A stretch of DNA of 64,000 bases, taken from Cyanidioschyzon merolae. Taxonomy: Eukaryota. The notes beneath the pieces are model-generated. The model saw only the letters and a program-made list of their open reading frames with translations. It ran no database searches and had not been told where the DNA came from. Numbering within the stretch: position 1 is the stretch's first letter; the number at the start of each line of letters is the position of its first letter. Shown here in pieces: positions 51,461-64,000 of this stretch. A program made the position numbers and the translations under genes. The DNA is taken from assembly GCA_000091205.1 (NCBI GenBank), contig AP006490.2; one strand, 5' to 3'.

Positions 51461-54400
51461 TTAGCTTCGACGAGCCGGCAAGGATACAAGACGTACAGGA
51501 GCGGCTCCAGAATCAGCCGGCTGCATATTCGTATCCAGTGCAAAGCGCGGCCTACTTTCGGACGATTTCCCCCCGATGTCAACATAGGGTGTCGAGTCGG
51601 GCCTCAGGGAGTCTAACGTTTGCTGCGACCGGGTTAGCTGACGCGACGTCGAGCTGCTGCTGTGGTCTGCGGCGGCCACTTGGGAAACATCCCCGTTTCG
51701 CGAAGAAGCGGCACGCTCCGTTATCGGATGTAAGGGCAGATCTGTGCTCGCTTCCTCTTCCGCAAGTCGTTTCCATTCATTTGCAAACTTACGACATATC
51801 TTCCCAAAAAGCGCGAGCAACTGAGCACTTTCAACCTGCATTTCTGCCCCGAGCTCTTCGAGTGGACGGCGCTGGAGTCCCACACCAACCAGGATAGCCT
51901 GCTGCGCCGGCGACAGCGTAATCCGCTCTGCAGCAAAATGGCCTTCAAAGTACAGACGACTCAGCACCGGAATGATATCCAAAATCACGTGATAGTCCAG
52001 CAGATGGTTTGCATACGCTTGCAAACGCCGCAAGTCGTGCATGGAAAGTAGCAAGCGAAGTTGTGCCGCGTTCCACAGACTGGCGTCGGGCGGTGCAGCT
52101 CGCAAGACGTCCAGCACGAGACCCAAGGGTAACGAGCGAAAGTCGTATGAGAGCAGCGACAGAAACCGTGCTCGCCAGTCCAAGTGCAGGGCCCTAAATC
52201 CCTGTTCATGGGCCTGCTTCAAACTCCGAAGCATGATGCAGGTATGCTCCGCAGTGACCTCATTCGGGGTAAGTCGCACGTAGACTGGCAGCATACCGAT
52301 GCGATTCCAGAATCGATACAGTCCGTGTGAGAGACCGAACGAAACCCCCAGATAGTCCAGATCCGGAACCCTCTGTTCACTCAGTCTGTAAAGCAACGGC
52401 TCCGGTACCGTGTCGTCATTGATGCTTCCCACAGACAGATCGGGTTGTGCATCATCGGTTTCTCGCAGAGTCTTTCGTTCATGCTGCTGCACACCGGAGG
52501 CCACTCGACGGCGGAAATGTTCCACGAGGCACTCCATGGCGCGGGTGCCGTAGCCCATACCTTGCACATCAGGATGCGTAGCAATGCGGATGACCCGAGC
52601 ACCTGCCAGTTGAGCAAAGGCTGTCTCCTGGAACTGTTGCGTTAGCGTCCACGGAATGAGGTCCCCAGCAGCTCGCTTCCCTCGCGACAACTGAGACTCG
52701 GTGTGTTCACGCGAGAGGCGCCCCTCGAGTCCTAGCTGAATGGCGCACAGCACATCCGGTAGTCGTTTTGGATCAGAGGAAGTTGGCCCCAGCAGCACAT
52801 ACAGCTGCTGGTTCGATGCATCGCTCAGCATCTGAAGATCATTGGGGGTGTTCTTATAGTGCGAGGACACAAAAAGCGCCATTACCCGACGGAGGAAAAT
52901 TTCCGCTAGGGCGTGTCCACTGAAAAGAACGTCGCGATTGACTTGGCATAGCGTGCACATGGAAGGGTGCGGAAGCGCACGTGTCTGCAACGCTGGCGCT
53001 TCTGTCGTCTCCAGGCAGAGGAGCGCGTGAAGCCACGCCTCCACCGGATCGTTGCGAGCGTAGCGGATGGGCTCCTCGAGAACAAGCTCGTGGAAGCGTC
53101 GACCATATTGCCGGGTGCTGGAGTCACAGCCGTGCTCTACTGGCGGCTCGATGCCGCCATTTGGGGTATGCGACACATCTTCCGGCATTGGGGGTGGCAC
53201 AAGCCTACTTTCTGCCGCCACTGAAGTGTTTTGTTGAACATGGCGGCGAGCCTGCGCGATCAGCTTGAGGGAGAGACTACGGCCGGTTCCTTCGTAACCG
53301 AAGATCGTCGACGATAGGAAGACGTGACACGATTTGCTGGGCAGAAGTGAGAGTATTCGTTTCACAAGTACCAGCGGTATAGCGGCTGCTTCATCAATAA
53401 TGACGAGGTCAGCGCTTACGAGGGCACCAATGGTGGCGGCATCCACCCGCCGGATAGCCTCTGGCTCAAGGTACGAGACCTGACGCACCCGCCGCCCAAG
53501 CATAGAGAGCTTGCTTATGCAGCGATCGTGTCGGGATTCTAGCACATAGTCCGTATGTTCTTGTAACTTGAGCTCATTCAGGCCTGACACTAAGAGTGAA
53601 AATAGAGTCTGGACGTTGTCCGCTGCGGGCGCTGTCACCACAATGGACGTGTAGCCGAGCGCAAGCGCCGCAGCCGCCGCTAGCCCCAGCGCCGCAGATT
53701 TGCCCCTGCCACGAGCTGCTGTCAAGACCACCATGGACGCTGCAAGCGCAGCCGGAGTTGTTGTATCGACGTTGCGGGCCAGCAGGGCATGAAGCGTCTC
53801 CAGGACACGAGCCTGGTCGAGCGTGCGGGTGCGACGCAGCAGCGGCCCTAGCACTTGCAGGTCTGCACGGGATGACCATAAGATTTCGAGCTGCTTTTGG
53901 CGAAACTCCGCTTCCGAAGTGACGTTGGAGTCGCCCACGGTGCCGCCAACTTCCGGAGGCGAACGAACATGAATCCGGGGAATAGAAGCGAGATCTTGCG
54001 CCCTGGAGCTATCATCTGCATTTGCAGCCTGAGGTATCGAATATGCTGACGAGCAGCTCGCACCACCAACGGCAGGAAGCACATTGAGTTCATCATCTAC
54101 TGCAAGCGCCATAGGGCAGGTCTCGAGGCTGAGGACGAGTCGCCGATTAAATCGTGGTACTATATCCGGGCACGATTCCGTGCGATAGTGGGCGTGTACG
54201 TCCATTTTCAGCGTGTACAGCTGCCGCAAACTCTCCATGTTATGCAAGAGGAACAATACCAAACCGCCTCCCTGCACAGTCTCGATCGTGCGTGCAAGAA
54301 GGTTCGGTGTAAGGGCTCCAAAGTCCTGTAGAACAAGGAGACCATAAGTGTTCCCAAGCACCTTTTCGGATTCAGAGTAGTACGAGAAGCGGATGTTAGC

Positions 54401-54700
54401 TGTCGAGACGAATAGTTCAAAAAGGTCTTCGGTTTTGGCGTCCACAGAGACTCCACCGTGTCGCAGCTTTTTGCGGAGTTGTCGCAGGCGTTTGCGGCGG
54501 TGCGACGAAAAACCCAGTTCCTTCTTATACATCCAAAGGACATCTGGCCGCGGCCTCGTTCCGATCCGAGTAAGTAAGTGGTAAAAGAAAGGGACCTGAT
54601 CTTTGGCGTGATCACCAACAACAAAGAAAAGCGCGCGGGTGTGTGTCTCGTAGGCGCGAACGAGCAGCTGCCGTACGCGTTCATCAACACGCTTCTTCAT
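51461..54700 (-). CDS. NAT10: RNA cytidine acetyltransferase NAT10/Kre33
   Basis: The N-terminus MKKRVDERVRQLL...RALFFVVGD aligns with human MHRKKVDNRIRILIENGV...RSLFVVVGD. A helicase-like Walker A motif and GNAT and tRNA-binding regions are present in a single 1079-aa ORF. The ATG is at 54698-54700. Confidence 0.9.
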   Translation of the reverse strand: MKKRVDERVRQLLVRAYETHTRALFFVVGDHAKDQVPFFYHLLTRIGTRPRPDVLWMYKKELGFSSHRRKRLRQLRKKLRHGGVSVDAKTEDLFELFVSTANIRFSYYSESEKVLGNTYGLLVLQDFGALTPNLLARTIETVQGGGLVLFLLHNMESLRQLYTLKMDVHAHYRTESCPDIVPRFNRRLVLSLETCPMALAVDDELNVLPAVGGASCSSAYSIPQAANADDSSRAQDLASIPRIHVRSPPEVGGTVGDSNVTSEAEFRQKQLEILWSSRADLQVLGPLLRRTRTLDQARVLETLHALLARNVDTTTPAALAASMVVLTAARGRGKSAALGLAAAAALALGYTSIVVTAPAADNVQTLFSLLVSGLNELKLQEHTDYVLESRHDRCISKLSMLGRRVRQVSYLEPEAIRRVDAATIGALVSADLVIIDEAAAIPLVLVKRILSLLPSKSCHVFLSSTIFGYEGTGRSLSLKLIAQARRHVQQNTSVAAESRLVPPPMPEDVSHTPNGGIEPPVEHGCDSSTRQYGRRFHELVLEEPIRYARNDPVEAWLHALLCLETTEAPALQTRALPHPSMCTLCQVNRDVLFSGHALAEIFLRRVMALFVSSHYKNTPNDLQMLSDASNQQLYVLLGPTSSDPKRLPDVLCAIQLGLEGRLSREHTESQLSRGKRAAGDLIPWTLTQQFQETAFAQLAGARVIRIATHPDVQGMGYGTRAMECLVEHFRRRVASGVQQHERKTLRETDDAQPDLSVGSINDDTVPEPLLYRLSEQRVPDLDYLGVSFGLSHGLYRFWNRIGMLPVYVRLTPNEVTAEHTCIMLRSLKQAHEQGFRALHLDWRARFLSLLSYDFRSLPLGLVLDVLRAAPPDASLWNAAQLRLLLSMHDLRRLQAYANHLLDYHVILDIIPVLSRLYFEGHFAAERITLSPAQQAILVGVGLQRRPLEELGAEMQVESAQLLALFGKICRKFANEWKRLAEEEASTDLPLHPITERAASSRNGDVSQVAAADHSSSSTSRQLTRSQQTLDSLRPDSTPYVDIGGKSSESRPRFALDTNMQPADSGAAPVRLVSLPARRS

Positions 54701-54884
54701 CGAAAGCTGCTAACGGTACCAAAGTTCGTTGCAGGTCCGTACCGATCCAAAGCGTAGCCACGCTGTAAAGCGCCGTTCTCAAGTGGAACGTCGCCGGTCG
54801 TGTACAGTAGTGACGAGGCACCCGCCCTAAACATAGAGTACCAAGCGACGTGCAGACGCCTCGTAGTTTTGGACCCGCCACGTT

Positions 54885-57513
54885 CTACTGCTTCCAGGTT
54901 TTTCTCATATAGTTCCACTTTGGGTTTTCTACCCCAACAATCACTTTTGTCCATTCTGGAGGTCTTTTCTCCATCATCGCACATCTACTCATATAGAGCG
55001 CGGCGCTAATATCTCGGTTCACAAACTCCATACGTTTCTTGCCATCATTGGTTGTACTAAACAATGCAGGTACTCCATCAACTTTCGCCCTCCTTTCCAT
55101 TCGCTCTTCCGTCAACGCTCCATGCTTTTTTATATCCTTCGGGGCTCCTTTGGCACTTTTCCATCTCGACGCTTTCAAGTACACAACCCAACTCGTGTGG
55201 TGCATAGGACGTTCGAGACTCATTTACAGGTATCGTAACGAGACTCCGTGTACACTCCTTGTACGTTCTTGTCGTCGAGGCTGGTGTACACCCTTTTTGG
55301 GTCTTCCAGCGCCCTGCTCCGTATGCTACTACGAGCATCTGACATTCATTCTCCTTCAGGGCGCTCAACTGATTGAAAAAGTTGGCAAATGCACGCTGCC
55401 ACCCACAGTATAGATTGATTCGCAGACGAGCCCACGGAGGCTTTGTAGATTCTTTCCACATTTCCTCCTACTAAACAAGGCGAACCTTCCATGGACTCGC
55501 GAAAAGCTTCAGTGTCCGCTCTGGCGCTCGCCGCCTCGCTCAAAGCTTCCACGTGCTCTTTCATTCATGCATTCCAGGCCCCAATTTTCTTCCTCGCACT
55601 CATGATTCCCGATTCTCCATGGTATCTCGCTCTCGAGAACATCAACAGACGCATGTCTTTCTGAAGCAAGTTACCGTCAGTACCATCTTCCGCACGCTTG
55701 GGAGCAGCGGTGGTACTGATATTCGTGTTGCCGGGGTCCGCGCCAGCGAAAAGGTCGTTATCCTCCACCTCCTGCGTCGCAGGACCCGCCACCTTCTTTT
55801 CTTCCTGCTTCGCCGCGCCAACGACAATATGGTTATCTCCACCTCCTGCGCCGTTGGATGCTCCTACTTCTCATCTTCATCCTTCGCCAAGGGCGGAACT
55901 GGACGATCTGTCTTCAAGCGCCGATGGTGTCCACACATGGCTACCCTATCGGTCTCGATCAACCCAGTGAATACCTTTTTCTTGCTCGTTTTCAGACGTT
56001 GGGAATCGAAGGTATTGTTCCAGTACGTGTCCCGGTTTTCACCGGAGAACACCTCCCCGCTGAAATCGAGCTCCGGGCTGATCTCCTGCATAATGCCATG
56101 GATTCTGGAGTCGATACTCACAAAATGTGACTTGAAGTTGCATAACGGAGCGACACTGAAGCGGCTCTCCAGAAGCGCAGCCTTCTGTGTCTCCCACTCT
56201 TCATTTTTCCCCACGCCCAGTTCCGTTTCGGCCTTGCATTCCAGTTCTCGGTCCAAAAACACGAAATGTCGCTGGATGCGATAATAATATCTTTCTTTAT
56301 CTTTTTGCAACTCTGATATCTTGTATGTTGGACTCATCAGCTCCAAGACTGCATGGTGCTCTTGTATAAACGCACGGATGAGGGAGTCCTCATTTATGCC
56401 ATCGTTTGACGTCTTCTAGCCGACAAATTCGACCTCATCTTCATGCTCACGATTGTTCGTGATGCGTTTGATAATCGCCCGTTTCCCATTACGAGAGACG
56501 CCCGGGCAGAGTGCAAACACGGCGCGTAACATGAAACGTTCGAGGTTCACCGTCAAATGGTTCTCCAGGTTCGTGATGTACTTCATCGCCCCATAGCCGT
56601 AAATATTCTGGTCACCCTTGCATCGAGTACCATTGAAGCTGTAAAAGGGATGCTTTTCGTGGAGAGCATGCACTAGCTCATTTTCACTCCGCGCTTCCTC
56701 TGTACCAAGTATCAGCTGACGAATTAAGGTCTTGTCGAAACCTCGTCTGGAATCTCGACAGTTTCCATGTGCGCCACGTCGCGATACATCTCCCTCGCCT
56801 AATGCATCAGTCCTGAAGAAGCCTTTATAATGCTCATGGAGTACGAGTCGCCACGTTTTATGATAGAGTCTCGCAATTTTTCCATGTATGGATCCTTGAT
56901 TTGTCCAAGAAGAAAGGTTTTCACAATCATCTCGTCGTACAGTTGCCTTTCCCGCAGCCTGCGACGTAGGGCCTCCCCTTGGCTTCTTCTCGACTTCCTT
57001 TTCTTCTGGACTCGGCACTGTTTTTTGTTTTTTCGGGCACCCAGCGACCCTGGGCCTCCAGGATCGTGGACTTGCTTTGTGATAGCTTCCTTTTTTAGTT
57101 TTTTTTTGAAAAACAACGCTCTTTGAACGCTTCTGCGATATACTGCGAAAAAACACTTGACTAGATATGTTTGAGGTGTGAAACAAAAACGAACTGAAAG
57201 ACTGTACTTGGCTACGACCTGAACGGAAATCCAACTTTTTTCGGTAGAACAACACGCTTCTGATCGAGATCGCGTTTCCCTTCAACAACGGCATGCGCAT
57301 CGTGTCAGTTGACTGACTGATCTCCCAGTTGCGCTCATTTAGCGCAATGCATCCACTGCGCGAGACGCTACTCCGATCGATGAAGGACACGTGTCCGAAA
57401 ACCCCGCCTTGGCACATGCGTGTTCGCATACCACTGCAGCCAAAATAAAGTATCGTAGATTGGAAACTCACGTAGAATGATCTCTTGCTACAGGCTCTGT
57501 CGCTGGTGCCCAT
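54885..57513 (-). pseudogene. Fragmented TnpB/Fanzor-like (OMEGA-family RuvC nuclease) gene relic within an AT-richer spacer; probably part of a decayed transposon
   Basis: Four collinear minus-strand ORF pieces are present. Piece 56416..57513 has a Lys-rich, NLS-like N-terminus. Piece 55864..56346 lies in the same frame as the first, separated by a single TAG, and contains a RuvC-I-like segment [31 protein letters not shown]. Piece 55078..55461 reads I-NLYC-GWQRAFANFFNQLSALKENECQMLVVAYGAGRWKTQKGC, which aligns with ISDra2 TnpB [41 protein letters not shown]. Piece 54885..55223, in another frame, has KKRMEFVNRDISAALYMS, matching the RuvC-III signature DRDVNAAKNI. A possible RuvC-II remnant, QEVEDNDL, lies between. 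Domain order and span (about 870 aa) fit Fanzor1/TnpB. Confidence 0.5.
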
Positions 57514-58540
57514 TGCAGTACCGCCCTGACATACATGGAGATGCAGCGGCCTGGTACGATACCCGTCGACGCTTCTATCAAACGCGTATCTTTCTCTGCG
57601 GCTTACGCGTGTGCGGATGAGGTATGCATCACTCTACTCAATAGAAATTTCGTTAATTTTATTGATCGTATATAAACAAGACACGGAATGATTCCTGACC
57701 AAGGATATTCGTTTAATCAATATGCTTGTTATGCATGCCGCACCGACGCTGGAATAAGGACCTGACCTGAATTTCGCTACTATCCTGTGCCATGGGCTGG
57801 AGCTGATGCCTGTTCAAGTCATTGCCATGCTGCCGTGGTTGTCCAAGTTATGGTGCCTGCTTCGTCCTCAGGATCCGGCGATCTTGGCGGAGGCAGAGCA
57901 CACAGGTAGCGTCCATGTCTGCCACGAGGTTTGAGCCTTCCATCTCGCCTGGCACGATCGTGGCACTTGACAAAAGCGCATACTGTATTCTGGTCTACTC
58001 TATCAGATTATTTTCAAAAGCCTAACCCGTACATCGAGCCCGAACGAGGCACCCCTGAAAACAAACGCCTTTCGAAAGTCGAACGGCGCCAGCGGTGCAC
58101 AGTAGTGGCGAGTGGCCCGCCCTAGAAATGACATCTCCAACTGACGTGCAGACGCATCCAAAATAAGATACCACCTTTGAAAATTTCCTTATGCCTCCTC
58201 TACGGTACTCGTCGGCGAGCTACGTGGAAGTTCGTCTACGATTGTTGTGATCTCTGAGCGCAGCACTGCGGAACCCTTGGCACCAATTACTGATGAGGTT
58301 GTTGATGGGAAGCATAGGAGATACGTCTAGTTTCTGAAAAAGACACTGAGCGCTTGTGCTAGATGTGCTCAACGCTAGACATTCTACGGGAGATTTAGGT
58401 CGGACTCTGGACAATGGATGGGTGATCACTCGTGCAGCTACGCAAAAGAGGTTTTTGACTGGATACGCACACCTACGCGAGCGATTCTAGCCGGTGACGT
58501 GATCGGCAGCTTTGCACCGGAGAAAATCTAATCCAAGAAA

Positions 58541-59616
58541 ATGCAAGCTCTTTTCGTTTCTGTTCCGCTGTACCAGGAAAGACATATTGTTTGCGCGCGC
58601 GCTGCAACCCGAGCACCGTTCCTGCTGCGTACGCATCGTGACGGTTACTTCGCAGCTGTACATCGTCACCATTGCCAGCATCCGCTGCCCTTCGTGGTGC
58701 AGCGTTCGCCTGCGGTGCGCAGGCATCGTATGCCGCATCTTCGTATGGGTCCGAAGCAGTCGCAGATCGCCGTCATCACTGGCGCGTCCTCTGGGGTCGG
58801 TCTGTATGCAGCTCCCGCTCTGATCAACAAGGGCAACTGGCACATCGTCATGGCATTTCGTGACATCGACCTCGTGGAGCGCGCAGCAAACAGCGTAAAC
58901 CTTCTAAAGGACGCCTATACCGTGCTGCATTGTGTTATGGCTGATTTCGCCTCTGTGTTGAAGTTTGTGAGAGAGCTGTCAAGTGTGGCGCGCGTCGATC
59001 ACCTGGATACCCTGATCTGCAATGCCGCAATCTGGCATCCGCCGGACAAGAAACGGCGTTTCACGGTGGACGGCATCGAGGAAACCATGCAGGTATGCCA
59101 TCTGAGCCATTTGCTTCTATGTCGGGAGCTGTTGCCGAAGCTGAAAATATCGCGCAGGCGCATTGTGTTTCTGACGACTCAGACACACTCGCCGAATTCG
59201 CTACCGGGAAAGATCCCCCGCAGGCTCGTCTCGGGGATTCGTCTAGTCTAGCCGCGGGGCTTGGTCCGCAGACGACAGGCATGGTAGAAAGTGGTCCGTT
59301 TGAGCCCACAAAAGCCTACAAAGACGCCAAAGCCGCGAACGTGTTATCAATGAAGGCGCTCGGTCATTGATACGGCCGCGACGGTGTGACCTCTGTGACG
59401 ATTTTCCCGGGATGTGTCGCCAACAGCAACCTCTTCCGCGAAAAGCGTGGCTGGTTCCGCTACATATTCTTCCCGATTCATCAGAAGTACATCACTCGGC
59501 AATACGTTCCCAATGATGAGGCCGGACGCCGTGAAGCCGAAGTGGCGACCCAGGGACAGTTCTCGGACTCGGGCTCGTATTATCAGTGGCGTGGCAAATA
59601 TACGTATGGGGGATAG
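58541..59616 (+). pseudogene. Light-dependent protochlorophyllide oxidoreductase (LPOR)-like SDR with a presequence; disrupted by a 1-bp frameshift and an in-frame TGA
   Basis: VITGASSGVGLYAAPALINKGNWHIVMAFRD aligns with Arabidopsis PORA [45 protein letters not shown] aligns with KAYKDSKVCNMLTM. PGCVANSNLFREKRGWFRYIFFPIHQKYITRQYVPNDEAGRR aligns with [41 protein letters not shown]. The frame shifts from 2 to 1 at the A3/C5 run gggaaagatccccc near 59205-59220. The stop at 59368-59370 (cat TGA tac) aligns with a conserved Arg, so it is a CGA>TGA change. Confidence 0.6.
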
Positions 59617-60279
59617 AAGTCCGAACCGCACGTTATTGAACCAACGTACGAAATCGACAAGGCAGATCAGCTTTACGAACTGAGTCTTGATCTGATCGAC
59701 CAGGCGTTACGGAGGCGAGGCCTCAAGTCGACTATCTTGGCCCCTGTCTAAGGTTTGTTAGTGGTGAATATGGGATGCGCCTTCGAAGCGCAGACCGCTG
59801 CGTCGAGGACGCATGTGGGAGCAACAGCGTAACGATGAAACGGCACCCCACTGTCACGATCGGATAGTGATCGGGTGAAAGGGCACTCCTCCTGATGTGG
59901 TGAGCCAAAATTGCTTCGCAAGTCATAAAGCGTACTGCAGTAGTGATTAATATAGCTATAGCTATGAGCTATTTCGCATCGAATGCGCCAGAGACTGCCA
60001 ACTGTGGTCGTTCAAGAGGGCAGAGCGTGTTTATTTGGGTAATCTGTAACTCTTTTTGCCATAAAGGATACGGCAATAGAAGCGCACTTGCAGACGTTTG
60101 AAAAATCTGTGGGTATTCGATATCAAAGTGGGTCAACGGGCGTGGATTAATGAAAGCTCGGCAGTGAATGCTCCAGCAAGATATGGTGCATTGAACGAAT
60201 CCGACCCAAGGATTGTACCAGGCGCTAGCTATGGGTCAGCATTCTGGAACAACATTGAGACTAATCCGATCATATTTGG

Positions 60280-61410
60280 TTGATTTGGATGTTCAAACAC
60301 GCTTGCAGTGACTTTCTCAATGATGTGTTTGCATTGAGGAAAGCATTCCCTACTCCAACACCAAAAACTTCGCGGACGCCTACCACCATCTGCTCCAATG
60401 AGCTCTGCGGATCTCCAGGACAGTGCATCAACCAGGACGCTTACGAGCAAGTCGGGTGCTGCTTCAACTCCCAGACGAACGCGTGCACCCTGAAGAGCGT
60501 CTCAGCGGCCTGCAGCGCTGTTCCAGTGACGCAGCGCGTCCCCTGCGGCTGGAGCTACATCTACCCTGACGATTGCACTGCGATACCGGGATGCTGCTGG
60601 CAGCCAACAGCGAACGGCATCCTCGCGCCCTGGTGCTACTACGACATCAACCATGCACCCCAGGCTTCTGTAGCGTTGCAGGAGGTGCAGGCACCGGTTC
60701 CCCTCTGCCCGTCACCGGGAGCGCAGCGCCAGCCGTGCGGCAACGCGGGTATCAACCAGTTTACCTGCTATGCCCAGGGCTGCTGCTACGACTCGCAGGC
60801 GCAGAACCAGTGGGTGCAGAACGGCAAGCAGCAGTGCGACTTTGCGTCGAACCCGTACTGCTTCCAGCCCGAGAAGACGTGCGCGGTGGGTGAGTTTGAG
60901 CGCCAGCCGTGCACGAACGCGGTGAATCACAACCAGCAGCTGACCAATAACATCAACAACAACCAGTTTGTGCGTCTGCTGAACACGCTTCTGTACGGGG
61001 AGCAGCACGGGACGCAGCGCACGAGCTACGCGCCGCAGCAGTGCCTGGAGGCGGGTTGCTGCCTGGGGCTTTGCAACGAGTGCTGCCAGCCGGTTACTGA
61101 GAACGTGTGCCAGACCTACGGGTACGTCTCGAACTCGCTGAGCGGCACGACCGGCAACGTATCGAACTCGAGCTATATTCCGTGTGGCCCGGAGTGCTGC
61201 AACGCCGAGATAGAGAACTGTACGTACAACCCGTTCAGCAACAGCAATAACCTGCGACAACAGCAGCAGCAGCAACAGGTGCTGTTGCCGTCATTCTGTG
61301 TATGCAAGGACCCTACAAAGCAGTGCGGGACGTACCTGATCGCTTCGGATAACCTTGTGAACAAGGTGCGTTGTTGCCGCTCTGGCGAGGAGTGCATCAA
61401 CAACGAGTGA
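60280..61410 (+). CDS. Cys-rich protein with tandem trefoil (P-type) domains and a Q/N-rich, Cys-rich C-terminal half
   Basis: CSAVPVTQRVPCGWSYIYPDDCTAIPGCCWQPTANGILAPWCYYD fits the trefoil consensus C-x(n)-R-x2-CG-x(n)-C-x(n)-GCC[FW]-x(n)-PWC[FY]. A second domain (CPSPGAQRQPCGNAGINQFTCYAQGCCYD...) and a partial first domain are also present. The track start is TTG, and the first ATG, at 60289, gives MFKHACSDF..., which has no signal peptide. A missing upstream exon is possible. Confidence 0.6.
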   Translation: MIWMFKHACSDFLNDVFALRKAFPTPTPKTSRTPTTICSNELCGSPGQCINQDAYEQVGCCFNSQTNACTLKSVSAACSAVPVTQRVPCGWSYIYPDDCTAIPGCCWQPTANGILAPWCYYDINHAPQASVALQEVQAPVPLCPSPGAQRQPCGNAGINQFTCYAQGCCYDSQAQNQWVQNGKQQCDFASNPYCFQPEKTCAVGEFERQPCTNAVNHNQQLTNNINNNQFVRLLNTLLYGEQHGTQRTSYAPQQCLEAGCCLGLCNECCQPVTENVCQTYGYVSNSLSGTTGNVSNSSYIPCGPECCNAEIENCTYNPFSNSNNLRQQQQQQQVLLPSFCVCKDPTKQCGTYLIASDNLVNKVRCCRSGEECINNE

Positions 61411-62208
61411 TTGTAGATTAGTCCCACACCGACTCCGAGTGCCATTATTGCGACTGCAACTGCGTCTCCAAGTGCGTCATATTGGTGTCGACCACAACGC
61501 ATGCCTCAGCAAGTGGTTCAGTATGAACCACTGCGTTGACGCCAGCTATCTGTACAGCCCCGCGCGCGACCATAGAACTAAGAATATGTTTCAGTTATTG
61601 ATATATTCATTCCATGAGGATCTTAGTTGTGCAATATAGTTCGCACATGCATGCACGCAACCTTCCAGTCCGGGTTGGCGGCCCATCATCCAATGTTGAG
61701 GGTGTCTGGACACCAAACTTCCCCCTAGACGGGATGCCAACAAATATGCAGATGGCGTGCAGAAAGAGGGAGTTTTTCGTATTGCGTCATAGCGGGCCGG
61801 GTCCGAATGTGCGACGGGCATGCTATTAGACCTTTTGGGTGTTTGGACTCTGCATGTGTATCTGAAACACGACTGCGGCGTAGAATGTTAACTTGCATTG
61901 CCATTACGAGAACGCCTTCATGAAACTAGATAGCAGACGCTGCAAAATATCTTTGTCCGTTTATTATAGAAATGTCCTGTTGTGGGAGCGCCGTGCGCAG
62001 ATCTGCGTCATTCAGAAGGCGGTGCTTGACGCGCTTCCGTGCTGCTTACCTCAGAATACTTCGTTGAGCCTGGTGGTGGTAAGGACGGAGACAGCAGTGA
62101 CAACAGTACCAGCAGCTGGAGTCTCTCCTATCCCTGGAGATTCTAAGCAACTTGTTTCTCTCAGTGGCGCTTTCTTTTCACTGGTGCAGAACCTCTTTCG
62201 TATCCCAT

Positions 62209-64000
62209 ATGCGAAGAAGATATTTTTCTATATTGAGACTCCTGGTGGTAGTATTGGTTGTGTCGGGCACACACACAGTTCGTGGAGTTTTGTCCTCCGA
62301 AGATACTTTTTTATGGACCTGGATCGGTGGTAGTAACTCTACCAGCAGTTCAGGTAGCTACGGTGTTCAGGGTGTGCCAAACACCAGCAACGTGCCTCCG
62401 GCGCGGTACGGTGCGGCCTTCTGGACCGGCGCTGACGGGGTGCTCTGGTTGTTTGGTGGTGGCAGCGACTTGAGAGACGTCTTCGGTGATCTCTGGAACT
62501 ACAATCTAAGCACGTTCTCTTGGACCTGGGTTGGAGGCTCTGCATCCCTCAACTCTGGAGGGGTATACGGCTCCCGCGGAGTTCCCAACAAGAGCAACTA
62601 TCCGCCTTCGAGGACGGAATCCGCTGCTTGGAGTGACAGCAACGGAAACCTTTGGTTATATGGAGGCCATAATTTGAACTCGGGCTATAGTGATATGTGG
62701 ATGTATAATGTATCGTCGGGCGAGTGGACATGGGAGCAGGGATCCAACAAGACCAATGTTCCCCCGACATATGGTACTCTTGGGAACTCGTCTTCAAGCA
62801 ACACGCCTGGCGCTCGTTTCCAACCCGCGACCTGGGTTGGCCTAGATGGCCAGTTTTATCTCTTTGCCGGATCTAGTCCTAATGGTACGTATTACGGTGA
62901 CTTGTGGCAGTACAACACAGTGACCAACGAATGGAGCTGGATAGGTGGCACTCAACAGCAGATTCCCTCTGGAAGCTATGGTGCGTTTCGCCAGGCATCG
63001 CCGAGCAATTATCCCGCTGGACGTCTCGGAGCCACATCGTGGCGAGACCTTGATGGGAACTTTTGGCTCTTTAGCGGTTACGGACAGATTGACGGAAATG
63101 GCGGCTCTCTGAATGATTTATGGCTGTACAATGTCAGCTCCAAAGAATGGACTTGGATGTCTGGAAATGACAGTGTTGGTTCGGATGGGGCAGTATACGG
63201 CGAGAAAGGAGTGCCGTCATCGAGCAACACTCCGGGGTACAGGTCCTCTTCCTCTGGATTTGTAGACTCGTCAAACACTCTGTATCTCTTCGGTGGTTAT
63301 TCACCCGGTTTCTGCAACGACCTGTGGACGTTCAATACTACGAGTCTTGAATGGACTTGGGTAGACGGTGACAATACAACGGATGGAGCCTATAGCTACG
63401 GCGAGCTTAACAAGACAAGCAATACAACGCTTCCACCTCCGCGAGCTTATGCAGTTCTTTGGAATACCGATCAAAACGACCCGGTCCTGTTCGGAGGCGT
63501 AGGCAACTCAGGTTCCCTTAACGACCTCTTCACATTATACATCGCAACACCGACGCCTACACCGACACCAACACCGACACCAACACCGACACCAACACCA
63601 ACACCAACACCGACGGCATCACCGACGCCCTCCGTTACTGCACCCCCGTCGGCAACGACAAATGTGACGCAGACCGCTGTAGGCGAAGGCTCTGCGGTCT
63701 GCTTCCCCGCGGATGCCCCGGTGCTGATCGATGGTCTGGGCAACCATCTGCAGATAAGCGAGCTTCGATCAGGTATGGCCGTAATGGGCGTCAATGGGCG
63801 CGGGCAACTGGTCGAAGATAGTGTACTAGGATGGTTGCATAACGAGGCCGGCGCTACTGCGGAGATTCTGGCGATCAAGACGCTTTCCGGAAAGCAGCTG
63901 CGTCTGACGAGACAGCATCTGGTATATCGAATGATCGAACACTCTAGAGACTTTTACGGTATGACGACCGCTTTCTCGTGTATTTCACAGAAGCAGCAGC
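62209..64000 (+). CDS. Secreted Kelch-repeat beta-propeller, (Thr-Pro)n linker and Hedgehog/intein-type Hint domain protein (Hog-like autoprocessing architecture); the 3' end lies beyond the window
   Basis: The frame opens after a TGA at about 62098-62100, and the first ATG gives the signal-peptide-like MRRRYFSILRLLVVVLVVSGTHTVRG. At least six Kelch-like repeats follow, of the form W[TS]W[IVM]GG...G.YG..G.P....P.R....W.D..G..WLFGG. A TPTPTPTPTPTPTPTPTPTPTASPTP linker comes next. The Hint module CFPADAPVLIDGLGNHLQISELRSGMAVMGVNGRGQLVEDSVLGWLHNEAGATAEILAIKTLSGKQLRLTRQHLVY aligns with Hedgehog [48 protein letters not shown]...LLLTAAHLLF. The ORF has no stop before nt 64000. Confidence 0.75.
   Translation, partial: MRRRYFSILRLLVVVLVVSGTHTVRGVLSSEDTFLWTWIGGSNSTSSSGSYGVQGVPNTSNVPPARYGAAFWTGADGVLWLFGGGSDLRDVFGDLWNYNLSTFSWTWVGGSASLNSGGVYGSRGVPNKSNYPPSRTESAAWSDSNGNLWLYGGHNLNSGYSDMWMYNVSSGEWTWEQGSNKTNVPPTYGTLGNSSSSNTPGARFQPATWVGLDGQFYLFAGSSPNGTYYGDLWQYNTVTNEWSWIGGTQQQIPSGSYGAFRQASPSNYPAGRLGATSWRDLDGNFWLFSGYGQIDGNGGSLNDLWLYNVSSKEWTWMSGNDSVGSDGAVYGEKGVPSSSNTPGYRSSSSGFVDSSNTLYLFGGYSPGFCNDLWTFNTTSLEWTWVDGDNTTDGAYSYGELNKTSNTTLPPPRAYAVLWNTDQNDPVLFGGVGNSGSLNDLFTLYIATPTPTPTPTPTPTPTPTPTPTPTASPTPSVTAPPSATTNVTQTAVGEGSAVCFPADAPVLIDGLGNHLQISELRSGMAVMGVNGRGQLVEDSVLGWLHNEAGATAEILAIKTLSGKQLRLTRQHLVYRMIEHSRDFYGMTTAFSCISQKQQ
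63547..63625 (+). repeat. (ACACCG/ACACCA)n hexanucleotide repeat encoding the (TP)n linker
   Basis: The sequence reads acaccgacaccaacaccgacaccaacaccgacaccaacaccaacaccaacaccgacg. Confidence 0.85.

Follow-up and report, generated by a model that had tools for sequence, protein, structure and literature searches.

The analysed stretch of DNA (64,000 nucleotides, hereafter the window) contains, towards its 3' part, a broken copy of a gene for light-dependent NADPH:protochlorophyllide oxidoreductase (LPOR; gene POR), followed by an intact gene annotated as similar to trefoil factor. Exact full-length matches to proteins of Cyanidioschyzon merolae strain 10D were obtained for CMH265C, CMH270C, BAM79913 (threonine dehydratase), BAM79915 (photolyase) and BAM79919, all of them encoded on a 739,753-bp chromosome; this identifies the window as 10D DNA, and the CMH locus tags assign it to chromosome 8. 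The composition of the window is about 55% G+C, with long intron-less open reading frames. The accessions of the last annotated gene upstream of the broken copy (BAM79919) and of the trefoil-factor gene (BAM79920) are consecutive, so that no protein-coding gene is annotated in the 5.6 kb between them, the POR locus included. The trefoil-factor product contains a Trefoil domain (Pfam PF00088, E=4.5e-13). The positions of the features are presented in Table 1.

Table 1. Features of the POR locus and its surroundings in the window
Feature	Position	Strand	Remarks
NAT10-like RNA cytidine acetyltransferase, BAM79919.1; last annotated gene upstream	51461..54700	-	exact protein match
DNA shared with related contigs; minimum duplicated block	54771..62886	.	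blastn
Whole POR copy, putative pseudogene	58541..59752	+	ATG to ancestral TAA; 403 codon equivalents after frame restoration
Presequence, 68 codons; equivalent of the plastid-targeting extension	58541..58744	+	aligns with the N-terminal extension of P0196 ('chloroplast precursor')
GASSGVGL, NADPH-binding glycine-rich motif	58781..58804	+	columns invariant in the protein alignment
Lesion 1: C5 run against C6, 1-bp deletion	59215..59219	+	C6 in L002, L003, L005, L006
YKDAK, catalytic (SDR YxxxK)	59317..59331	+	columns invariant in the protein alignment; 3' of the frameshift
Lesion 2: CGA>TGA, Arg277	59368..59370	+	CGA in L002, L003, L005, L006
Substitution-dense patch, window copy only	59605..59631	+	9 differences in 27 bp; contains lesion 3
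Lesion 3: GAG>TAG, Glu359	59614..59616	+	GAG in 5/5 C. merolae-clade DNA copies
Ancestral stop TAA	59750..59752	+	position of the stop of intact copy L002
'Similar to trefoil factor', BAM79920.1, intact	60289..61410	+	exact protein match

On three-frame translation of 58541-59760, the LPOR-like product was found to be divided between two frames. The first of them, frame 0, is open from the ATG for 236 codons, after which the homology resumes in the +2 frame. For the protein comparisons, both frames were joined across the lesions into a stitched product of 403 residues. Residues 46-386 of this product were aligned with residues 9-350 of Arabidopsis PORB (9tl6_A; E=4.3e-66), and the cyanobacterial LPORs 6rnw, 6l1h and 6r46 were matched with E values of about 1e-54 to 1e-56. 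The best match to an SDR other than LPOR in the structure search reached an E value of only 4e-8. The NCBIfam LPOR model TIGR01289 was matched by residues 73-386 at model positions 2-312 of 315 (E=6e-79, 265.8 bits); this score lies below the curated equivalog cut-off of 331.35 bits, as do the scores of intact Cyanidiales LPORs (295-315 bits), and it is about 45 bits lower than those of the intact C. merolae paralogues (310-312 bits). The strong collinear similarity to LPOR described in the first-pass annotation, which had been made from the sequence alone, was thus reproduced.

The characteristic parts of the enzyme were recovered as well. Besides the glycine-rich and YKDAK motifs, the LPOR-specific loop between the Rossmann core and YxxxK is present, with the PORB alignment unbroken through PGKIPPQARLGD...GPFEPTKAYKD, and the C-terminal FPxFQKxIT block is found as FFPIHQKYITRQYV. 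Both motifs and the C-terminal block had been named in the first-pass annotation, as had the presequence, whose 68-codon extension matches that of an intact paralogue. The presequence is the most diverged segment of the copy (78-87% DNA identity). In its full-length collinearity, NADPH motif, YxxxK, loop and QKxIT block the copy resembles the LPORs covered by TIGR01289, those with known structures (PORB 9tl6/7jk9 and Thermosynechococcus 6l1h) among them. In contrast to these, it has a broken frame and a score under the curated cut-off, and would be inactive as encoded; an uninterrupted reading frame for the whole enzyme is precluded by a 1-bp deletion, a TGA and a TAG.

The lesions were determined from DNA alignments. 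The protein search gave a tight group of relatives with 73-90% identity, the DNA of six relatives was aligned, and the five related copies of the C. merolae clade (L001, L002, L003, L005 and L006) served as the reference. At the first lesion, the window and L001 both have C5, one base shorter than the other four copies. The loss of this base leads to the termination of frame 0 at the TAG in 59249-59251. The TGA of the second lesion is likewise shared by the window and L001; the Arg277 it replaces was found in 9 of the 9 aligned homologues, and its column in the protein alignment is near-invariant. Both of these lesions had been claimed in the first-pass annotation, the base loss as lying near 59205-59220, and both were confirmed. 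A third one had been overlooked there, since the feature was taken to end with the TAG at 59614-59616. The homology extends for 45 codons past this TAG, up to the TAA, and the PORB alignment continues beyond it through ...EPTYEIDKADQLYELSLDLI. At the TAG site, Glu is also present in the aligned Cyanidiococcus and Cyanidium proteins. Judged by these alignments, the TAG is a nonsense codon and not the natural stop, and the 3' end of the copy is accordingly at 59752.

The third lesion is located in a patch in which substitutions of the window copy are concentrated. Within 59601-59635, the window is 71-74% identical to its relatives, compared with at least 97% between L001 and L002, the sole other pair measured. 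No donor of the patch was detected in the window or in the fetched related loci. Two other causes of the interrupted frame were considered and rejected. An alternative genetic code does not apply, as TGA and TAG both serve as ordinary stops in genes of the window with exactly matching deposited proteins (4/4). TGA closes the frames of CMH270C, threonine dehydratase and photolyase, in agreement with the first-pass statement that TGA is a genuine stop in the window, and TAG closes that of CMH265C. An intron behind the frame change was dismissed because the difference from the intact copies consists of a single homopolymer base.

Among the related contigs carrying POR-region DNA, the identity with the window was 84-91% over 1.6-4.7 kb. 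One of these, L001, is an independently assembled 4.7-kb JGI metagenome contig, which over its whole length is 91% identical to 58181-62886 of the window by blastn. Its called protein, P0011 (236 aa), has the same out-of-frame tail as the window ORF. L005 matches 56757-60026 at 84%, and L003 matches 54771-57031 at 76% and 58236-60011 at 84% (blastn). The POR copies of these two contigs are damaged differently, by a +1/-1 frameshift pair in L005 and, in L003, by the loss of 2 bp from the presequence together with a premature TGA elsewhere. As the lesions of these other family copies are non-homologous, the decay of surplus POR copies is common in the C. merolae clade. A search of the JGI metagenome contigs with an 18-mer across the C5 run returned 45 loci, all of them chance matches, and the sample of L001 was not recovered. 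As to whether POR was ancestral at chromosome 8, the Cyanidiococcus-like contig L007 was compared, and its two upstream genes had no match in the window.

The substitution pattern of the mature region was studied with the changes polarised by the five other C. merolae-clade copies. The branch of the window copy had 8 synonymous, 16 nonsynonymous and 1 nonsense change with an omega-like ratio of 0.68, for which neutrality was not rejected (p=0.36), whereas the branch of the intact L002 had 8 synonymous, 1 nonsynonymous and no nonsense change, with a ratio of 0.04; these branch-specific numbers are low, and the branches may be blurred by gene conversion. In the part covered by the 236-codon ORF, the changes specific to L001 comprised 1 synonymous and 14 nonsynonymous ones. 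The pairwise dN/dS values between the window copy and intact copies, for which metagenome and Logan contigs were used in place of other chromosome ends of 10D, were 0.29-0.50 and not 1. Values below 1 are to be expected, since selection acted along the greater part of each pairwise path. When set against the intact paralogues and the orthologues from Cyanidiococcus and Cyanidium (P0234, P0237), the window copy shows non-conservative replacements of its own at conserved sites, for example C106F, R111L, D132V/L133M, P172R, G236S, L314H and V332E. The contrast between the two branches is clear, although the counts are small, and it suggests that the window copy has been under relaxed constraint, its own substitutions looking neutral. 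This is in line with the relaxation of selection for which a check had been proposed in the first-pass annotation. The copy had also been described there as recently pseudogenised. Its decay is well supported by the present results, but its recency is not demonstrable, as the frameshift and the TGA were already present before the window copy and L001 separated (dS~0.08).

Two intact paralogues of strain 10D were found in the 90%-identity cluster of the best protein match. One of them, BAM79708.1 (CMG217C, P0197; 'NADPH:protochlorophyllide oxidoreductase'), has 403 aa and is encoded on chromosome 7 (584,452 bp); the other, BAM81403.1 (CMN338C, P0196; '...chloroplast precursor'), is of the same length and is encoded on chromosome 14 (852,727 bp). 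The stitched product was 90% identical to the former and 88% identical to the latter. Like the window copy, both genes consist of 403 codons with the same presequence and motifs, and both of the corresponding ends, 7R and 14R, are on the list of PH-element ends of Nozaki et al. (PMC1955436). Unlike the window copy with its frameshift, two nonsense codons and about 40 differing residues, the two genes are uninterrupted. Three por genes, CMD190C, CMG217C and CMN338C, have been reported in strain 10D by Hunsperger et al. (2015, PMC4337275). The same authors found that the 10D plastid genome lacks chlL, chlN and chlB (their Table 2), and consequently DPOR, the plastid enzyme suggested for a search in the first-pass annotation, is not encoded there. 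As LIPOR is absent according to that study, C. merolae depends on LPOR.

Since the intact paralogues on other chromosomes supply the enzyme, the copy in the window is redundant and irrelevant to the photosynthetic capacity of the alga; this contradicts the proposal that its loss might reflect the photosynthetic status of the organism. A related case is known from the chlL/N/B pseudogenes in the plastids of cryptophytes (PMC4337275), where, likewise, a single step of chlorophyll synthesis is served redundantly and one of the routes or copies decays. The difference is that the whole LIPOR system was lost from those plastid genomes (PMC4337275), whereas at the window locus the enzyme is retained, only a redundant nuclear copy of its gene decays, and the pathway does not suffer.

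The surroundings of the copy correspond to a duplicated chromosome end. The boundaries of the shared block were drawn with metagenome and Logan contigs, not with other chromosome ends of 10D, and the extent in Table 1 is a minimum. In L003, a metagenome contig of 102.8 kb, about 2.5 kb separate the POR copy from the contig end. According to Nozaki et al. (2007, BMC Biol 5:28, PMC1955436), directed sequencing brought the genome to completion from telomere to telomere, and the telomeres are adjoined by homologous subtelomeric elements, which fall into eight types and are up to 20 kb long. The commonest type is 'PH', named for the genes of NADPH:protochlorophyllide oxidoreductase (P) and hedgehog (H) and located at 6L, 7R, 8L, 8R, 11L, 14R, 18R and 19R; the genes that these authors report from chromosome ends include those for trefoil factor (T). 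BAM79920.1 is the T gene of the subtelomeric elements.

The window agrees with the PH elements (PMC1955436) in having POR and then a trefoil-factor gene after the last unique gene of chromosome 8. It differs from them in that no telomere repeat or hedgehog gene occurs inside it. The repeat AATGGGGGG was not found anywhere in the window, which ends 4.2 kb past the pseudogene, while the elements reach 20 kb. Among the ORFs of 54.7-64.0 kb, no Hint/hedgehog gene was detected, the Trefoil-domain gene being the only hit, and the ORFs of the unannotated 54.7-58.5 kb had no Pfam matches at a permissive threshold. The hedgehog gene may lie beyond the end of the window. The gene order, with CMH numbers that rise along the window and then POR and trefoil, fits the 8R element, and the gene numbering together with the published map indicates that the duplicated block probably belongs to the PH element of 8R rather than of 8L. 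Which of the P copies are pseudogenes is not specified in the accessible part of the text of PMC1955436.

The locus is best explained as an unprocessed LPOR pseudogene in a duplicated block, probably of the 8R subtelomeric PH element of C. merolae 10D, to which a probability of about 0.93 was assigned. Disabling lesions, an intact paralogue in the genome, relaxed selection and duplicated flanks, which together characterise unprocessed pseudogenes, were all found. The homology to related contigs reaches well beyond the ORF on both sides, and there is no poly(A) or retrocopy signature.

The competing view that the gene is intact and its lesions are local sequencing or assembly errors of the reference had been left open in the first-pass annotation. 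An error in the length of a homopolymer is a classic artefact, the exact product of the 236-aa ORF occurs in no other assembly of the protein collection, and the 10D allele is without independent confirmation. Such errors would have to account for three separate lesions. The recurrence of the deletion and the TGA in L001, which was assembled independently and is only 91% identical to the window, excludes an assembly error for both of them, and a base-calling error could not yield the TAG, because it is inside a patch of 9 substitutions. About 16 private replacements, several of them at conserved or invariant sites and with a neutral ratio of synonymous to nonsynonymous changes, are equally foreign to an intact gene. 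The neighbouring long genes are intact, as had been noted in the first pass, and match deposited proteins exactly, and the genome was completed by directed sequencing from telomere to telomere (PMC1955436). Errors in the reference are thus an extremely improbable explanation. No more credence can be given to a full-length enzyme produced by recoding, that is, by a +1/-1 frameshift at the C run and read-through of the TGA and TAG. Homopolymer runs can be slippery, and the downstream frame is open between the lesions and keeps YKDAK and the C-terminal POR block. Nevertheless, three independent events would be needed, in a window whose annotated genes terminate at TGA and TAG. At the lesion sites, normal sense codons are found in the intact paralogues and in other copies, purifying selection is not visible in the substitution pattern of the window copy, and the non-homologous lesions of L005 and L003 point to decay and not to a conserved recoding.

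It was also considered that the 5' ORF (58541-59251) encodes a truncated plastid-targeted Rossmann-fold protein of 236 aa with a new non-catalytic role in NADPH binding or regulation. The ORF begins with an ATG and retains both the presequence and an undamaged GASSGVGL, and the same length and tail are kept by P0011 of L001. On the other hand, the private non-conservative replacements C106F, D132V and P172R at conserved SDR positions argue against constraint, and within the ORF part the window and L001 differ by many nonsynonymous changes, consistent with the L001-specific counts given above. The ORF is unannotated as a gene, and its exact product was absent from the protein collection. A new role for the fragment is accordingly very unlikely. 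Translation from the ATG would yield 236 residues, made up of the presequence and 168 residues of the Rossmann domain. Since the catalytic Tyr and Lys are missing from this fragment, the reduction of protochlorophyllide by it should be impossible. Residual function of the locus is, we infer, absent.

For the origin of the pseudogene, the following order of events is proposed. Segmental duplication among the chromosome ends would have spread POR copies to several termini, of which the copies of chromosomes 7 and 14 (and 4) escaped damage and supplied the enzyme. With two or three active genes present, the chromosome 8 copy would have been free to decay. The 1-bp deletion in the C6 run and the CGA>TGA change are placed first because they are common to L001. 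Later, on the lineage of the window, the GAG>TAG change and about 16 amino-acid replacements would have followed, with neutral drift since then.

A wider interpretation, in which the chromosome-end POR copies form a birth-and-death family in flux through subtelomeric gene conversion, is put forward only tentatively and is rather doubtful. The identity between the copies varies along the gene in a mosaic fashion: around the shared lesions it reaches 98% between the window and L001, and in the N-terminal third it is 98% between L001 and the intact L002. This mosaic and the 27-bp substitution patch fit gene conversion. If the interpretation were true, the broken copies would be sequence donors or acceptors for the active 7R and 14R genes, and the system might have arisen in compensation for the loss of LIPOR, the dark enzyme.

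The presence of POR copies in PH elements, including that of 8R, was already published in 2007 (PMC1955436). The present analysis adds the anatomy of the three lesions, the true 3' end of the copy and its neutral substitution pattern. Given the dependence on LPOR (PMC4337275), a broken POR might have seemed alarming; intact paralogues exist. For the annotation of the genome, it is of value to flag 58541-59752 as a POR pseudogene with three lesions, and degenerate subtelomeric copies of this kind matter to POR gene counts and to the design of knock-outs in C. merolae. The broader biological weight of the finding is low, as the copy is an ordinary redundant pseudogene. It represents a clean small case of neutral decay among subtelomeric duplicates in a very compact genome.

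The POR pseudogene copy at 58541-59752 was compared with the copy in L001, a 4.7-kb metagenome contig that shares its first two lesions, and with the intact copy L002, and the resulting pattern of identity was mosaic. Across 59215-59400, the segment spanning the shared lesions, the window copy and L001 were 98% identical, and the identity of the same pair was just 92% at 58745-58960, where L001 matched intact L002 at 98%. This mosaic identity among the three sequences suggests that subtelomeric POR copies have undergone gene conversion with one another.

The TAG lesion of the pseudogene falls inside a patch at 59601-59635 with 10 substitutions over its 35 bp, all private to the window copy (identity 71-74%). 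The identity between L001 and L002, the sole other pair measured in this segment, was 97%. A search of the window and the fetched loci yielded no donor for the patch. Its sequence, TATGGGGGAT, faintly resembles the telomere unit AATGGGGGG, perhaps by coincidence.

The POR relatives from hot-spring metagenomes in contigs L003 and L005 each carried lesions of their own, different from those of the other copies (see the table). The frameshift pair of L005 scrambles about 34 residues within a seemingly "intact" 403-aa ORF (P0003).

The 3.8 kb at 54771-58500, between the NAT10-like gene and the POR pseudogene, are without an annotated protein, and a Pfam search of this stretch gave no match. It contains ORFs such as the minus-strand example in the table, the equivalent of which is fragmented in L003, a related 102.8-kb contig with about 76% DNA identity to the stretch. 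The stretch is probably additional decayed subtelomeric DNA.

Features of the subtelomeric block and lesions of the metagenomic POR copies
Feature	Sequence	Coordinates	Strand	Description
Example ORF within 54771-58500	Window	56416-57513	minus	365 aa, ATG start
Tandem duplication, subtelomeric block	Window	55738-55888		74-bp unit, 2 copies, 76% match
CAACAC/CAACACCGACAC microsatellite, subtelomeric block	Window	63545-63626		~7-11 copies
POR copy	L003	10001-10762		2-bp deletion in presequence and premature TGA
POR copy	L005	1796-3007		compensating +1/-1 frameshift pair

Outside the window, the third "intact" C. merolae paralogue, CMD190C on chromosome 4, reads KAFKDAK in a published supplementary alignment (PMC4337275), with Phe in place of the Tyr that is catalytic in the SDR motif YxxxK. 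The same replacement was detected in the metagenomic protein cluster P0007. CMD190C may be catalytically impaired despite its open frame. The intact Cyanidiales LPORs, namely CMN338C and CMG217C of C. merolae (P0196, P0197) and the Cyanidiococcus and Cyanidium orthologues (P0234, P0237), scored 295-315 bits on the LPOR profile TIGR01289, all below the curated cut-off of 331.35, and have Ala (KAAN) at the site where other LPORs carry a Cys after YKDSK. The sub-cut-off score and the Cys to Ala replacement are a lineage peculiarity of functional enzymes and not a sign of decay.
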